From an uncultured Alphaproteobacteria bacterium (GTDB taxonomy: Bacteria > Pseudomonadota > Alphaproteobacteria > RF32 > CAG-239): a stretch of DNA of 64,000 nucleotides. This document shows positions 50,652 to 57,988 of the stretch, one piece after another. The notes under the pieces were generated by a model. It did no database searches. It was not told where the DNA came from and saw nothing but the letters and a program-made list of their open reading frames with translations. The position numbers and the translations under genes were made by a program. Each line of letters starts with the position of its first letter. Position 1 is the first letter of the stretch. The stretch covers positions 65,652 to 129,651 of the forward strand of contig CAKQUE010000001.1 in the NCBI GenBank assembly GCA_934277435.1, written 5' to 3'.

Positions 50652-51659
50652 ATGGCTGATAATAACGATATTCTTGAAGATGATGATTTTGAAAAACTAT
50701 TGAATAGTTTTATCAATGACAGAACTGATGACATTGAAGAAGATGTTGACGGCAATGTTTCTGACAAAATTAATAAACTTAAGAATCCCGAACCCGATGC
50801 CGAACCAGAAGAAACAAATGACGATATTCTTCATGACGAAGATATGCTTATGCCTCTGGATGAAGGAGATCAAAAAATAAACGCCCAAATGACAGATGAA
50901 GATTTGGATAAAGCACTGGTGTCTTCTTTACAAGCTGCCAAAGATGAAGCTCAAGACGCCAAAGAACAGCCAACTCTTGGTAGTGACGAATCGGAATTAG
51001 CGCAAGCCTTTTTGAACTTTTACAATTCTGTCAATAAACTTTCAAACCAGATGCTGAAAAAACCTTACGAGTGTAATTTTGAAGTTGATGACCTTTATCC
51101 AAACTACAAACCAAGCACCGGACAAATTTTATCAAACGATTTGGTTCACGGCTGGGTTTTGCTGGTTTCTCTGTTTCCTAATGAACTTGGTAAATTTTCT
51201 CCAAGTTCTTCAGATGAAGAATTTTTAAATTTGGCCGAAAAAATCAGCAATTCAGATTTACAACTAGCAATAATCTCTTATGTGGAAATTTTAATTGATA
51301 TTGAAAGCTGCGAATTGTCATATCAGGCAAAACTGCTTCAACATCAAGAAAAATATATCAAACGACTGATGTATGAAGAGTATTTAGCGCGTAAAGAAAG
51401 ACAGCGTAAATTTACCGAAGCTCTGGCTAAAAAGAATTTTCCGGTTGATGCCGACAGACTCGTCAGCAATTATTTTAGAGTGGCACAAAAAGATGTGGAC
51501 GGCGCATATAAAGCTCTGACAACCAATCCGGCTATTTTTGCTCCAATTGATTTCAGCAAAATAAAACCTCGCTTTTTCGGAATTTTAAAAGTAACACCTA
51601 AAGACGGTATCAGAGTAAATTTGGAAATCGGCAACTTTTTGAGAAAGCTGAAAGTCTAA
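50652..51659 (+). CDS. Hypothetical protein with a highly acidic N-terminal ~130 aa and a C-terminal folded domain; first gene of the T4CP-associated cluster
   Basis: RBS GGAG 8 nt upstream of the ATG at 50652. Asp/Glu-rich N-terminus (ILEDDDFEKLL...DAEPEETNDDILHDEDM). No TM segment, no signal peptide. Basic C-terminus. Confidence 0.5.
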   Translation: MADNNDILEDDDFEKLLNSFINDRTDDIEEDVDGNVSDKINKLKNPEPDAEPEETNDDILHDEDMLMPLDEGDQKINAQMTDEDLDKALVSSLQAAKDEAQDAKEQPTLGSDESELAQAFLNFYNSVNKLSNQMLKKPYECNFEVDDLYPNYKPSTGQILSNDLVHGWVLLVSLFPNELGKFSPSSSDEEFLNLAEKISNSDLQLAIISYVEILIDIESCELSYQAKLLQHQEKYIKRLMYEEYLARKERQRKFTEALAKKNFPVDADRLVSNYFRVAQKDVDGAYKALTTNPAIFAPIDFSKIKPRFFGILKVTPKDGIRVNLEIGNFLRKLKV

Positions 51660-51729
51660 ATAAAAAGTAATAGACAAAAATCTTTTTTTATGATATATTT
51701 AATTCAATGGTTTAGAAGGAGTATTTCTT

Positions 51730-55763: not shown

Positions 55764-55771
55764 AGGTGAAA

Positions 55772-57988
55772 ATGGCTTTTAAAGAACGTGGTGAAGAATG
55801 GAAAGAATATGACAACGCCGTCCACTGGATGCTTATAACTTTTTTTATTTGTTTGGGTATAACAGTAGCGTTGTTTATTTTTGCTTTGCCTTTGTCATAT
55901 TTGGTTGGACATGGTATTTCTAAATCATCTTTTGCGATGATTAATAAATTTTTATCTTTGATTATTGAAAAACCAGACCATCTTTGGGCCATGTATGCCA
56001 AATGGTTCAGACAAATAGTTCACTACCGAGGCGCTTTTTCTTTAAGCTTATGGATTCCGATTTTGCCATTTATCACTATTCCTGTCGGCTTAATTGTCGG
56101 CGCGCTACTCAGCCCATACAAATTTCAAGTCAATACTCAAGGTTCAGCGCGAATCGCAGAACTACGTGATATTAATAAAATGGCATTGCTTGGATTTGAT
56201 GGCTTTTGTCAGGTAGTCGGTAAATTTAAAGGCCGCTTTTTGATGCTAAAAGAAACGCTCGCCACACTATGCTGCGCACCTCCGGGTACCGGTAAAACCG
56301 CCGGCGTGGTGATTCCGACAATTTTTAACTCCGATAAATTGAGTATCATTGTAAACGACCCGAAACCGGAACTTTGCTATTCCACCAGCGGCGCTCGCGC
56401 TAAAGTTGGTCCGGTGTTTATTATCAACTGGGGTGCTGAGGATAACCCAAGCGAAGGTATTTATTATCCAAGCTGGAATCCGCTGTCTCCTAATTCTATG
56501 CCTGAAGCAGGCCCAGACCGTGATATGTATGTGGACTCAATGTGCAACATTTTGGTAGAAGACCCAAAAGGCGGTGCCGACCCGCACTGGGCTAACACTG
56601 GTCGTGCCGCGCTAACCGGTTTTATTAACTTTGTGGCCTCTAAATGTGACCGAGCCAGAGCTAATGACTATTTCATCAGCCGTATTTATGAAGGCAAACT
56701 TGATGAAAAAGATAAAGAGGTGCTGGAGGGCTATTATATGGAAATGCGCGACCCAGCAGCACCGCGTGCCATTCAAAATTTGAAAAACGGCACTTTAACC
56801 ATGGAAAACTATTTGCCTATCGGCACTTGGAATTTGCTGCCGTCACGTTGGATGGGACGAGAAGCATGTATTGCCATGATTATGGAATGGATTACTGAAG
56901 CGCAAATTAACGCCGCTCAAGAAATTCAGCGCCGTATGGACGAAGGCGACCAGATGGCGGCTATGGCCGACCCAACTCACGATATGTTGGAAGAAGCCGT
57001 AAAAGAAGCCCGTAATTTTGGTTATTCGCAACGTTGTATCACCGAGTTAAGCTCTCTTAGCAGTATGCCAGATAAAGAGCGTGGTTCAGTGCTTTCTACC
57101 GCTTTTGCCGGTATCGGCTGTTTCAAAAACCAAGCCGTAAAAGCCCGCACCAGCTTTTCGGATATTCAATTTAAAGACTTACGTGGTATGAAAGACCCAG
57201 TGACCGGCGAGTGGAAACCAATTTCTGTGTATCTTTCCGTAAACCAAGTAGATGCGCGCGCTTTGGGCGTTATTAGTAGTACGTTTATTGAACTTATGTC
57301 ATCTTATTTGATTTCTAACCCGCCTAACCATGTGAATAAAACCGATGGTAAAATGGGACCTTTCCCTACTTTGTTCATCCTCGACGAGTTTCCGCAAATG
57401 CCTAAGATGAAAGCCATTATTGATGGTCCGGCAGTAGGTCGTGGTCAAAAAGTGTCTTATTTGCTGATTGGACAAGATTTGGGCCAAATTTCCGGTAAAT
57501 ATGGTAAAGATGACTTGGAAACAGTGATTTCTACCACCGCTTGCAAGATTATTCTTTCACAAAACAATGAGGTTACTGCTCAGCGTTTTTCTAAGATGAT
57601 TGGTAATAAAACCGTGCAAGTTTCATCTTTCAGCCGTACAGAAGGCAGCTTGGGTAAAGACTTTAACCCACTGGCAAAGAATGTAAACTATCAAATGCAA
57701 GGCGTTCCGGTTATCAGCGCCACGCAGTTGCTGAGCTTGCCGTTGCTAAAGCAAGTTATTTTGATGCAAAGTTACATTGATAGACCTATTATGGCGGATT
57801 CGCCGCGTTATTATCTGGATCCTAAAATGCGTAAAATGGCTAAAATGCCGCCTTGCCCAAATGTTCCGGATTGGATTGTGGCTCAGCGTGAAGACATTAA
57901 CGATGATATGTTGGCAAAACTTGGAATTGAATATGATCCAGATGCCGATGGTGATGACAACTTTGAAGTTGACTCCCCGCAAGCATAA
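55772..57988 (+). CDS. Type IV secretion coupling protein (VirD4/TraG/TrwB family ATPase), orphan
   Basis: Two N-terminal TM helices. Walker A LCCAPPGTGKTAGVVIPTIF, then S.IVNDPKPE...GPVFIINW. Walker B TLFILDEFPQMP, then LLIGQDLGQI. ATG at 55772 with RBS AGAGGTGA; the ORF-track start at 55766 is a GTG. A terminator follows. Confidence 0.8.
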   Translation: MAFKERGEEWKEYDNAVHWMLITFFICLGITVALFIFALPLSYLVGHGISKSSFAMINKFLSLIIEKPDHLWAMYAKWFRQIVHYRGAFSLSLWIPILPFITIPVGLIVGALLSPYKFQVNTQGSARIAELRDINKMALLGFDGFCQVVGKFKGRFLMLKETLATLCCAPPGTGKTAGVVIPTIFNSDKLSIIVNDPKPELCYSTSGARAKVGPVFIINWGAEDNPSEGIYYPSWNPLSPNSMPEAGPDRDMYVDSMCNILVEDPKGGADPHWANTGRAALTGFINFVASKCDRARANDYFISRIYEGKLDEKDKEVLEGYYMEMRDPAAPRAIQNLKNGTLTMENYLPIGTWNLLPSRWMGREACIAMIMEWITEAQINAAQEIQRRMDEGDQMAAMADPTHDMLEEAVKEARNFGYSQRCITELSSLSSMPDKERGSVLSTAFAGIGCFKNQAVKARTSFSDIQFKDLRGMKDPVTGEWKPISVYLSVNQVDARALGVISSTFIELMSSYLISNPPNHVNKTDGKMGPFPTLFILDEFPQMPKMKAIIDGPAVGRGQKVSYLLIGQDLGQISGKYGKDDLETVISTTACKIILSQNNEVTAQRFSKMIGNKTVQVSSFSRTEGSLGKDFNPLAKNVNYQMQGVPVISATQLLSLPLLKQVILMQSYIDRPIMADSPRYYLDPKMRKMAKMPPCPNVPDWIVAQREDINDDMLAKLGIEYDPDADGDDNFEVDSPQA

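Follow-up and report, generated by a model that had tools for sequence, protein, structure and literature searches.

A chromosomally fixed VirD4/TraG-type coupling-protein cassette in a large clade of gut and rumen Alphaproteobacteria

Organization of the locus

The window, by which we mean the whole 64-kb stretch of DNA that was analysed, comes from an uncultured clade of gut and rumen Alphaproteobacteria with relatives in 419 GTDB species. It contains five genes on the same strand (g1 to g5), the last of which codes for a type IV coupling protein (T4CP), as an initial annotation of this DNA had proposed. The features of this cassette are:

50565-50651: intergenic region separating g1 from the divergent rluD on the minus strand; a GGAG ribosome-binding site lies 7 nt ahead of the ATG of g1
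50652-51659, plus strand: g1, 335 aa
51730-53733, plus strand: g2, 667 aa
53736-54227, plus strand: g3, 163 aa, starting 2 nt past the g2 stop
54282-55763, plus strand: g4, 493 aa
55772-57988, plus strand: g5, 738 aa, with the ATG at 55772 being the public gene call
58004-58041, plus strand: strong intrinsic terminator ending the cassette, with a 10-bp GC-rich stem (AAACCACCGA/TCGGTGGTTT), an 8-nt loop and a T-run; stem and T-run occupy 58004-58031

The intergenic region 50565-50651 is presumed to hold the cassette promoter; a scan of it with the sigma-70 consensus gave no match. An rluD-like gene and rpoH lie upstream in divergent orientation and an ECF sigma unit follows the terminator, so that the surroundings described in the initial annotation are all borne out by the sequence. 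It had also regarded the genes as translationally coupled, with gaps of 2-3 nt. The four gaps actually measure 70, 2, 54 and 8 nt, and gap statistics identify g2-g3 and g4-g5 as the only tight junctions, both in the window and clade-wide. The g5 gene is co-transcribed and closely juxtaposed with g4. The cassette contains no pseudogenes, and neither an integrase nor flanking repeats were noticed at it.

A coupling protein under stronger constraint than the replicative polymerase

Profile comparisons of g5 recovered the Pfam families T4SS-DNA_transf (PF02534; 193 bits against a cut-off of 20.1, E = 1.2e-56), TraG-D_C (PF12696; 80 bits, E = 1.7e-22) and TrwB_AAD_bind (PF10412; 62.6 bits, E = 4e-17), and its best NCBIfam matches are of the VirD4, TraG and CD1115 types, all scoring under the equivalog cut-offs. 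These family matches identify g5 as a coupling protein and not as FtsK. Hydropathy indicates two N-terminal transmembrane (TM) segments (residues 21-39 and 95-113), and the Walker A (PPGTGKT), Walker B (LDEFP) and IGQDLGQ blocks are invariant in eight diverse orthologs from the clade; the Pfam matches, TM segments and motifs hence agree with the two-helix, Walker A/B and QDL architecture originally ascribed to this protein. Its C-terminal tail is acidic and conserved. Judged by its sequence, g5 is a genuine, intact VirD4/TraG-family T4CP, an ATPase that the two helices anchor in the inner membrane. The nearest plasmid relatives are VirD4 proteins with 33% identity over 97% of the length, whose genes close complete virB operons. 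Sequence searches of the PDB with g5 (both as a profile and as a single sequence), g4 and g1 yielded nothing useful.

Comparison of the homologous loci revealed that g2-g5, and usually g1-g5, are syntenic in every one of the 80 species loci with enough flanking sequence, always in a housekeeping neighborhood beside rluD and rpoH. The T4CP locus is chromosomal and single-copy. Moreover, g5 is the most conserved gene of the neighborhood: its median identity in the middle group is 85%, above those of RpoH (79%), DnaE (77%) and RluD (71%). Given this degree of conservation and the synteny across 80 species, g5 is a functioning core gene rather than a relic. The cassette as a whole is a coupling-protein module that is fixed in the chromosome and passed on vertically throughout this large clade of gut and rumen Alphaproteobacteria.

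These data bear on two other explanations. A lone T4CP, whose closest counterparts on plasmids belong to complete conjugative virB operons, could be a non-functional leftover of a decaying, integrated conjugative element (ICE). However, the ORF is intact with catalytic motifs invariant in over 100 sequence clusters, the between-genus identity exceeds that of DnaE, synteny is kept and the cassette is free of pseudogenes; a pseudogene or ICE remnant is thus effectively refuted. The second is prompted by a weak match of g5 to the PADLOC model mad8 (E = 0.0024), and by the frequency of ATPase-nuclease pairs in defense: a membrane ATPase of the FtsK/HerA/T4CP superfamily might act with a nuclease effector against incoming plasmid or phage DNA at the membrane. 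Defense systems are typically patchy and mobile, whereas this core locus occurs in single copy and in constant synteny throughout an order-level clade, is conserved at a housekeeping level and lies outside defense islands. Furthermore, no PADLOC model matches g1-g4, the cassette was not recognized as a PADLOC defense system, and the nuclease fold found in g4 (see below) is a generic one, which together make a defense role highly improbable.

The partner proteins

The g3 protein has a TM hairpin, with helices at residues 8-26 and 62-80, and ends in a charged tail. It is paralogous to the N-terminal domain of g4, as indicated by BLASTP (E = 8e-10) and by their alignment. The two had been described as paralogous polytopic membrane proteins; the paralogy is upheld, but each has only two TM helices and is not polytopic. 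In g4 the Trp-rich two-TM hairpin (residues 1-107) is followed by a long disordered linker with acidic and basic stretches (residues 109-326), which contains the conserved motifs VVKKKSYKxIRP and HxLFKFDDDDDDFDLDxDSF. Fold searches revealed that the remainder (residues 330-493) is a cytoplasmic NERD-like domain of the PD-(D/E)xK nuclease fold that was absent from the initial annotation; the structure prediction drew its input homologs from protein-database searches. The domain displays the alpha-beta-beta-beta-alpha-beta core of this superfamily, with D355, D370 and E372 invariant, K371 near-invariant (at least 90% conserved), and an invariant loop of the form GDWLADEExFNxEEPLWFSExSHRxSPV. The putative active site reads D...D-K-E rather than the canonical (D/E)xK, and the lysine is replaced by arginine in a distant homolog (L091). 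Against the Pfam NERD model (PF08378) g4 scores 17.8 bits, below the gathering threshold of 22.1, and this family is recorded on a few homologs (P0143, P0159, P0204 and P0210).

The g1 protein is soluble and begins with a conserved motif, DDEFEKLLNxFI. It also has an acidic disordered linker, with 36 D/E against 9 K/R in residues 1-110, confirming the extremely acidic N-terminus noted earlier, and residues 111-260 form a conserved helical-bundle domain, which is generic in fold searches; the C-terminus is also conserved. We consider g1 a candidate adaptor. In contrast to the T4CP, the hydrophilic g2 protein (34% charged residues) diverges very rapidly, showing about 33% identity between species whose T4CPs are at least 94% identical. 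Nevertheless, its position is always filled across the clade by an ORF of 427-816 aa, with one conserved hydrophobic motif, KExDIIxYMYxxWFLAxxNW, near residues 272-295. It is a candidate substrate or effector, or else a candidate scaffold. No family match was obtained for g1-g3 in Pfam, NCBIfam or PADLOC, and neither g1 nor g4 has a homolog among 72,556 plasmids.

Search for secretion-channel genes

We searched for a cognate channel by tblastn, with queries taken from the nearest plasmid systems (VirB2-B11 and MobA) and from two chromosomal virB clusters. No VirB, Trb or relaxase genes were recovered in the 64-kb window or within 10 kb on either side of the homologous locus in 80 other species, and the search of 86 related loci, 1.6 Mb in total, was likewise negative. 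The original claims that no type IV secretion system (T4SS) machinery lies near the T4CP and that the layout differs from standard conjugation or VirB/D4 arrangements are thereby sustained. The check proposed with them, namely whether the five genes are conserved as a unit in the absence of such machinery, has a positive outcome. Among 80 VirB4 loci from metagenomes none was assignable to the clade: the matches come from other orders, with tetranucleotide correlations to the clade of at most 0.875 and GyrB identities of 56-63%. The only genes common to the contigs bearing VirB4 islands and to the clade are those for GyrB, ParA, ParB and GidA (45-63% identity), and NCBI locus-tag prefixes gave no link between the two either.

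A 205-aa protein encoded after virB4 was considered as a T4SS marker; eight species have homologs of it 6.5 kb downstream from their T4CP. It was rejected, as it contains an HExxH motif of the zinc-metallopeptidase type, does not resemble the virB clusters compared, and hence does not mark a T4SS. A search of the literature on orphan T4CPs, on T4SSs in the RF32 lineage and on NERD proteins linked to T4SSs found nothing relevant.

Relatives of the coupling protein in other lineages

T4CPs 49-55% identical to g5 again lack channel genes alongside, whereas those 41-46% identical occur inside chromosomal virB operons, including virB4/B8/B9/B10/B11 clusters set among chromosomal housekeeping genes (43-46%). 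In a rough neighbor-joining tree these virB-linked T4CPs (43-46%) fall among the "orphan" ones. Related gut Alphaproteobacteria, e.g. Ca. Enterousia, also display isolated virB3-virB4 islands among housekeeping genes, and contigs with such islands match the contig of a 53% identical orphan T4CP (L094) with tetranucleotide correlations of 0.91-0.95. On nucleotide composition, which is the only basis of this link, L094 probably belongs to a lineage that carries virB3-virB4 as a separate island.

In L091, whose T4CP is 55% identical, the g4-T4CP pair is kept with overlapping stop and start codons, and is preceded by a gene for a ribbon-helix-helix protein. This is the usual fold of relaxosome accessory proteins (PMC12857230). 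PD-(D/E)xK nucleases are an established, restriction-endonuclease-like relaxase class, MOBC, which includes TraX of pAD1 and MobC of CloDF13 (PMC12857230). A T4CP together with a PD-(D/E)xK-fold protein, the absence of mating-pair-formation genes at the locus and the ribbon-helix-helix gene in L091 would all suit a domesticated mobilization module of the CloDF13 type, with its own T4CP and a MOBC-like relaxase, which would exploit the T4SS of co-resident conjugative elements and in this way send out chromosomal DNA or else a linked element. We think this improbable: the housekeeping synteny is the same in 80 species with no integrase or repeats in evidence, conservation exceeds that of core genes, g4 is membrane-anchored as known relaxases are not, and no similarity to plasmid proteins was found.

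Other relatives have different partners. In L098 and L180 the T4CP relative is joined to pentapeptide-repeat proteins, a family that includes DNA mimics, with no VirB genes nearby, and in P0369 it bears an RNase_T-like C-terminal fusion and sits in a virB cluster. Type IV pilin-like genes are found near the cassette in L091 and L024, though not consistently across the clade. Additionally, about 20 species of the clade and L091 have a gene pair directly 3' of the T4CP coding for a protein with a colicin/pyocin-DNase-like HNH motif and a SUKH-like (immunity-type) protein. An effector gene and its immunity gene would be expected to stand together in this way; the window's own lineage lacks the pair.

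The repeated association of this branch of T4CPs with DNA-related partners (g4 in L091, the pentapeptide repeats and the RNase_T-like fusion) accords with an autonomous machine that needs no T4SS, in which the T4CP hexamer, joined by the hairpins of g3 and g4, would act as a DNA translocase of the inner membrane to which a nuclease-fold domain is tethered. Its role would be at a housekeeping level: it might export DNA to the periplasm or to vesicles, import and degrade DNA for nucleotide salvage, or clear and process DNA at the membrane, comparable to the working of FtsK/SpoIIIE and of HerA-nuclease pairs. The count of zero channel genes in all the sequence examined for the clade is what this predicts; a fixed housekeeping context and conservation above DnaE are unusual for secretion accessories, the dedicated membrane partners could provide extra pore helices, and g1 and g4 do not occur on plasmids. 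However, we know of no T4CP shown to act without a mating-pair-formation channel, and crossing only the inner membrane offers a diderm no obvious benefit. In addition, T4SS-linked relatives (43-46%) fall among the orphans in the tree, P0369 itself sits in a virB cluster, and the effector/immunity-like pair in many members suits secretion better. We regard such a machine as, on balance, unlikely. Still more doubtful, in our estimate, is that the clade is devoid of any type IV channel and that the VirD4 motor, hairpins and nuclease fold have been domesticated as an essential stand-alone inner-membrane machine that moves or degrades DNA for export or nucleotide scavenging in gut symbionts with small genomes.

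A tentative functional model

Our preferred explanation, to which we assign a probability of about 45%, is that the cassette forms the end of a scattered T4SS at which substrates are recruited and DNA is processed. Such a system is plausible because related lineages have T4CPs in virB clusters (43-46%) and because of the L094-type match in composition. It is supported by the identity of the T4CP and its intact motifs, its constraint above that of DnaE and its synteny; by the L091 pair with its ribbon-helix-helix gene, the existence of the MOBC class and the HNH/SUKH pair; and by the mingling of virB-linked and orphan T4CPs in the tree and the virB3-virB4 islands in relatives. Against it stand the lack of channel genes in the window and the 1.6 Mb of flanks, the lack of a VirB4 locus assignable to the clade, the absence of the HNH/SUKH pair from the window's lineage, the non-canonical site of g4 and the purely compositional nature of the L094 link.

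In such a scattered system the hairpins of g3 and g4 may pack against the TM helices of the T4CP hexamer, with the acidic disordered linker of g4 tethering its cytoplasmic nuclease-fold domain. This domain and the acidic, helical g1 would form a relaxosome-like or adaptor layer, which might recognize or process a substrate (DNA or nuclease-type effectors) and pass it to the motor. The fast-evolving g2 could be the substrate itself or a variable scaffold, and g5 would feed a type IV secretion channel encoded elsewhere on the chromosome.

In the usual view, T4CPs control access to conjugation and effector-secretion channels, and their genes share mobile or virulence loci with those of the channel. 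In the widespread, uncultured gut bacteria of humans and animals considered here, a T4CP is instead a vertically inherited core gene, constrained more tightly than the replicative polymerase and flanked by partners outside all described families. Should the channel be encoded elsewhere, the cassette would represent a new kind of coupling complex, in which a nuclease-fold protein tethered to the membrane is combined with an acidic adaptor and a candidate substrate of extreme variability. It would then also point to an unstudied secretion system in gut bacteria, some of which would deploy DNase-like effectors. Should no channel exist, a motor of conjugation would have acquired a new role in the cell, and no other T4CP is known to operate independently of a T4SS.

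Comparison with known systems

The initial annotation had likened the cassette to the DotL-DotM-adaptor subcomplex found in type IVB systems. With DotL-DotM-DotN-IcmS/W/LvgA it shares the general concept of a T4CP that has a dedicated membrane partner, soluble adaptors and acidic sequences. As homology, however, the analogy fails: no homology was detected, g5 scores as a VirD4/TraG type rather than a DotL type, and there are no Dot/Icm genes at the locus. Fold searches found no resemblance of the partners to DotM or IcmS/W-type adaptors, with g4 instead showing the PD-(D/E)xK fold and g1 a generic helical bundle.

With the NERD proteins (PF08378), among which membrane-anchored forms are common, g4 shares the fold, a weak Pfam match and N-terminal TM helices; it differs in its sub-threshold score, its large invariant loop insertion and its obligatory pairing with a T4CP. 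To our knowledge, which includes a literature search, a NERD-like protein obligatorily paired with a T4CP has no precedent. CloDF13 encodes its own T4CP, MobB, and the likeness of the cassette to this MOBC system, compared by fold and description, lies in the pairing of a PD-(D/E)xK-fold protein with a T4CP where channel genes are absent. The differences lie in the membrane anchor of g4, its non-canonical motif and its location outside plasmids.

The nearest annotated relatives of g5, the VirD4 proteins of the Erythrobacter aureus and Sphingosinicella megaplasmids, have the same full-length architecture (two TM helices, Walker A/B and TraG-D_C). On those plasmids the gene is the last of a virB2-B11 operon with a MobA/MobL relaxase as neighbor, whereas g5 is chromosomal, beside rluD/rpoH and four unrelated partners. 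In Rickettsiales the T4SS genes are scattered on the chromosome, and a similar dispersal among housekeeping genes is also seen in the virB3-virB4 islands of the Ca. Enterousia type. Rickettsiales virD4 stays linked to virB8-B11; in contrast, g5 is linked to no such genes, and g1-g4 have no known counterpart there. What the scattered, host-associated T4SSs and the present clade have in common is a highly conserved T4CP in host-associated Alphaproteobacteria with small genomes; host association and small genomes are features of the Enterousia/Rs-D84 bacteria as well (PMC12306168).

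Cassette layout and the coupling protein

The gene for the type IV coupling protein (T4CP), which public gene calls start at the ATG at 55772, is the last of five genes (g1-g5), with a GGAG situated 7 nt 5' of the g1 ATG:

50652-51659, + strand: g1, 335 aa ORF
51730-53733, + strand: g2, 667 aa ORF
53736-54227, + strand: g3, 163 aa ORF
54282-55763, + strand: g4, 493 aa ORF
55772-57988, + strand: g5, 738 aa ORF, the T4CP
58004-58031: terminator closing the cassette, 10-bp stem followed by a T-run

The intergenic gaps are 70, 2, 54 and 8 nt in the window, with medians of 78, 1, 58 and ~16 nt across 70 related loci; the translational coupling by 2-3 nt gaps proposed in the initial annotation thus stands as tight spacing at g2-g3 and g4-g5, and falls for the other two junctions (70 and 54 nt). 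The divergent upstream genes code for an RluD-like pseudouridine synthase of the RluA family and sigma-32 (RpoH), and the cassette is followed on its 3' side by a small ORF, an ECF sigma factor, a Spy/CpxP-like protein and then dnaE. The remaining content of the window is of housekeeping type (addAB-like genes, murJ, atp genes, tgt and an RND efflux pump). The unit directly past the terminator (58096-59304), comprising the small membrane ORF, the ECF sigma factor and the Spy/CpxP-like periplasmic protein, is of the envelope-stress type and is kept only among the close relatives of the window. The region of the T4CP gene (56001-58000) has a GC content of 0.446 against 0.36-0.39 in neighboring 2-kb bins, which could stem from constraint on the protein sequence or from foreign ancestry long ago.

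Profile searches confirmed that the last gene codes for a genuine T4CP, with matches to the Pfam models T4SS-DNA_transf (E 1.2e-56), TraG-D_C (1.7e-22) and TrwB_AAD_bind (4e-17), and to VirD4/TraG/CD1115-type models of NCBIfam, every score of the latter being under the equivalog cut-off. Two transmembrane (TM) segments were found at the N-terminus, as had been described, and the Walker A (PPGTGKT), Walker B (LDEFP) and IGQDLGQ blocks are invariant among diverse orthologs. Sequence and architecture both place g5 in the T4CP family; its divergence from TrwB and DotL is too great for a sequence search of PDB to detect them.

The partner proteins g1-g4

Searches of g1-g4 against PADLOC, Pfam and NCBIfam recovered no family above threshold. 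The g3 protein and residues 1-107 of g4 are paralogous Trp-rich two-helix hairpins (BLASTP E 8e-10); the earlier description of two paralogous polytopic membrane proteins was hence right as to paralogy, each protein having just two TM helices. In g4 the hairpin is followed by a basic motif, VVKKKSYKxIRP, which by the positive-inside rule would place the remainder of the protein in the cytoplasm. Next come a conserved acidic/aromatic motif (HxLFKFDDDDDDFDLDxDSF), a D/N/K/R linker of low complexity and predicted disorder, and a conserved domain formed by the final 160 residues, for which AlphaFold predicts an alpha-beta-beta-beta-alpha-beta-alpha-beta arrangement (pLDDT ~90). This domain has a weak match to the Pfam NERD family (PF08378; E 0.005, under threshold), which is also recorded on a few homologs. 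Three of its acidic residues, D355, D370 and E372, are invariant and K371 is almost so, at a spacing that differs from the canonical (D/E)xK. On the basis of the modeled fold we assign g4 to the PD-(D/E)xK superfamily as a NERD-like putative nuclease, sub-threshold in Pfam. An invariant insertion in this fold, the loop GDWLADEExFNxEEPLWFSExSHRxSPV (low model confidence), is similar to the 'DWWLDDxxF' motifs that some related T4CPs carry in their acidic C-terminal tails and may, speculatively, be a binding motif.

In g1 a conserved DDEFEKLLNxFI motif at the N-terminus is followed by a disordered acidic linker and then by a bundle of helices (pLDDT ~90), the structural matches of which are generic helical repeats only, e.g. 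talin and Avd. The conserved motif of g2 is a single hydrophobic stretch, KExDIIxYMYxxWFLAxxNW; its slot is always filled by an ORF of 427-816 aa, though often undetectable by sequence, and it is ~33% identical between species whose T4CPs are at least 94% and DnaE 96% identical. Such figures rank g2 among the fastest-evolving genes to be expected beside a T4CP of this kind.

Distribution and conservation

The window derives from an uncultured human-gut alphaproteobacterium found in ENA metagenome assemblies (Hadza and Nepali samples among them) on contigs of up to 561 kb, and an identical 738-aa g5 protein is present on 19 contigs. When one genome of each GTDB species was scanned, g5 relatives were recovered in 419 species. 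The best 80 belong without exception to 'Alphaproteobacteria bacterium' MAGs of gut, rumen or faecal origin (human, ruminant, reindeer, rabbit and chicken hosts), and one of these carries the name Candidatus Scatocola faecigallinarum. The order g2-g3-g4-g5 is kept in every locus with sufficient flank, and g1 and the divergent rluD-rpoH pair are also present in most loci of the clade; in one subgroup (L026, L031, L047) g2-g5 follows other housekeeping genes and g1 is absent from that position.

Median identities to the window proteins in three depth groups (1, 2, 3)
g5 (T4CP): 95%, 85%, 75%
DnaE: 96%, 77%, no hit
RpoH: 93%, 79%, 74%
RluD: 84%, 71%, 65%
g4: 77%, 55%, 41%
g1: 69%, 55%, 43%
g3: 75%, 45%, 27%
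g2: 33%, 24%, 26%

These medians mark the T4CP as a core gene on which purifying selection is very strong. Across the 80 species the cassette is vertically inherited with zero channel genes nearby, which upholds the view that it is maintained as a unit free of type IV secretion system (T4SS) genes. A domesticated CloDF13-like MOB module fits this synteny and conservation poorly, and we regard it as improbable; a defence system, confronted with the same pattern, is more doubtful still, and a remnant of an integrated conjugative element is hardly credible.

Search for the secretion channel

We searched the window and 86 clade loci (1.6 Mb) by tblastn (E <= 0.01) with two query sets, namely VirB2, B3, B4, B5-like, B6-like, B8, B9, B10, B11 and MobA of an Erythrobacter plasmid, and the proteins encoded by two chromosomal virB clusters and by two virB3-virB4 islands from the gut. 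Neither set recovered a channel gene in these sequences, the T4CP matching itself, in agreement with the reported lack of nearby T4SS genes. The sole other match in the clade loci was a protein with a zinc-metallopeptidase motif (HExxH), which is not a T4SS marker. Likewise, tblastn searches with g1 and g4 found no match in 72,556 plasmids.

A VirB4-profile scan of metagenome contigs, based on two peptide patterns, gave 141 matches, of which the best 80 were analyzed. Most of these 80 loci come from gut, rumen and termite samples and sit on long chromosomal contigs, the longest of 851 kb; they contain virB3-virB4 with a small secreted HExxH protein (~205 aa), isolated amid topA, dnaG, ychF, lpxK and lpxC (L137 9656-12997; L110 9665-13016; ~70 further loci among L109-L178), with no T4CP within 10 kb. 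By database name they belong to Candidatus Enterousia intestinigallinarum and 'Alphaproteobacteria bacterium', the islands being present in Ca. Enterousia and in other gut Alphaproteobacteria of reduced genome; Enterousia belongs to the GTDB order Rs-D84 and has genomes of <1 Mb (PMC12306168). The contig of one distant T4CP locus, L094, correlates with many VirB4 contigs in tetranucleotide composition (r 0.91-0.95) no less strongly than with its own sister contig, suggesting that this lineage probably has a scattered T4SS and an isolated T4CP. No VirB4 locus among the best 80 of the 141 matches, a set in which absence is not evidence, could be linked to the clade of the window: between VirB4 loci and clade loci the tetranucleotide correlation reaches 0.875 at best, against a within-clade median best of 0.957, and GyrB identity between a clade member and the VirB4 contigs is only 56-63%.

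Accessory genes and distant relatives

Three further genes flank the cassette in relatives and are all absent from the lineage of the window. One, g0, codes for a small one-TM DUF6476 protein between rluD and g1 in the 73-78% group (e.g. L089 5066-5350). The other two, g6 and g7, overlap directly 3' of the T4CP in ~20 clade species and in the more distant L091 (L089 12246-13287; L091 12265-13334; also L041, L048, L049, L069 etc.). The g7 product (~147 aa) is SUKH/SMI1-KNR4-like (Pfam SUKH_5 E 1.8e-4, under cut-off). The g6 product (~200 aa) has an HNH motif of the colicin/pyocin-DNase type; its C-terminus finds its best PDB match in the pyocin AP41 HNH DNase domain (E 0.05), with the aligned motif ENFNvHlKiPldfGG..NNlvLi..H..iH and one catalytic His replaced. 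By this marginal match the pair resembles a nuclease toxin and a matching immunity protein.

Type IV pilin-like genes with an N-terminal methylation motif (GRSMIEMLGVLAI...) occur at ~0.5 per 100 kb in the clade loci, and their linkage to the cassette is inconsistent among these:

window 403-1122 and 19109-19756, - strand: pilin-like genes with the methylation motif
L091 13.4-14.6 kb (three copies) and L024 12553-13401: directly after the T4CP cassette
L069 16234-16818, - strand: matches PilS, a type IVb pilin

Beyond the clade, HMMER was run exhaustively against 1.84 billion representatives and recovered, as the next relatives, T4CPs of at most 55% identity, in diverse contexts:

L091 (55%): ribbon-helix-helix (RHH) protein, g4 homolog overlapping the T4CP start, T4CP, g6, g7, three type IV pilin-like genes; no VirB
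L094 (53%): alone beside rsmE and a pseudouridine synthase; rpoH-like sigma 3 kb off
L093 (49%): alone beside ruvB and ybgC
L179 (46%): collinear virB4 ... B8-B9-B10-B11-T4CP
L096 (43%): virB10-virB11-T4CP (RNase_T-like tail) facing virB4-B8-B9 and a Secretin-domain (PF00263) gene, on a 533-kb chromosomal contig; the virB cluster (6937-19838) lies between gyrB/parE-like, ccmF and lon genes
L098 and L180 (41% and 38%): ~400-aa pentapeptide-repeat protein upstream (8772-10001 and 4227-5429, respectively), translationally coupled to an orphan T4CP with a long acidic/aromatic C-terminal tail; no VirB

Some related T4CPs also display Hint/intein insertions at the Walker A P-loop (P0367, P0393, P0407 and P0369), and the C-terminus of P0369 bears an RNase_T-like extension.

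Functional interpretation

The g5 protein is an intact, extremely conserved VirD4-family ATPase encoded in a vertically inherited, operon-like cassette that includes two membrane hairpin paralogs, one bearing a PD-(D/E)xK-fold domain. The T4SS-linked T4CPs are placed among the orphan versions in a rough neighbor-joining tree; given this interleaving, a sister lineage that appears scattered, and the effector/immunity-like pair trailing the T4CP in many members, we rank first, at a probability of roughly 45%, the reading that the cassette is the coupling end of a scattered T4SS. Second comes a stand-alone DNA-handling machine, a possible if doubtful reading favored by the zero channel genes seen for the clade, the housekeeping-like constraint on g5 and relatives repeatedly joined to DNA-related partners.

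The pairing of g4 with the T4CP is retained at 55% T4CP identity. We propose that g3 and g4 would associate with the membrane domain of the T4CP, that g4 and g1 may form a layer recognizing or processing the substrate, and that g2 could be a substrate or a variable scaffold. The accepted relaxase class MOBC is one of PD-(D/E)xK proteins, and the usual accessory proteins of relaxosomes are of the RHH type (PMC12857230).

By none of the tests run is the cassette a DotL/DotM-type complex, to which the initial annotation likened it. To our knowledge, neither the combination of this T4CP with these partners nor its place among the core chromosomal loci of a widespread gut clade has a prior description, and we found none in the literature. 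The closest plasmid proteins to g5 are the VirD4 proteins of Erythrobacter aureus and Sphingosinicella megaplasmids (33% identity, 97% of length), the genes of which stand at the end of complete virB2-B11 operons, next to a MobA/MobL relaxase.
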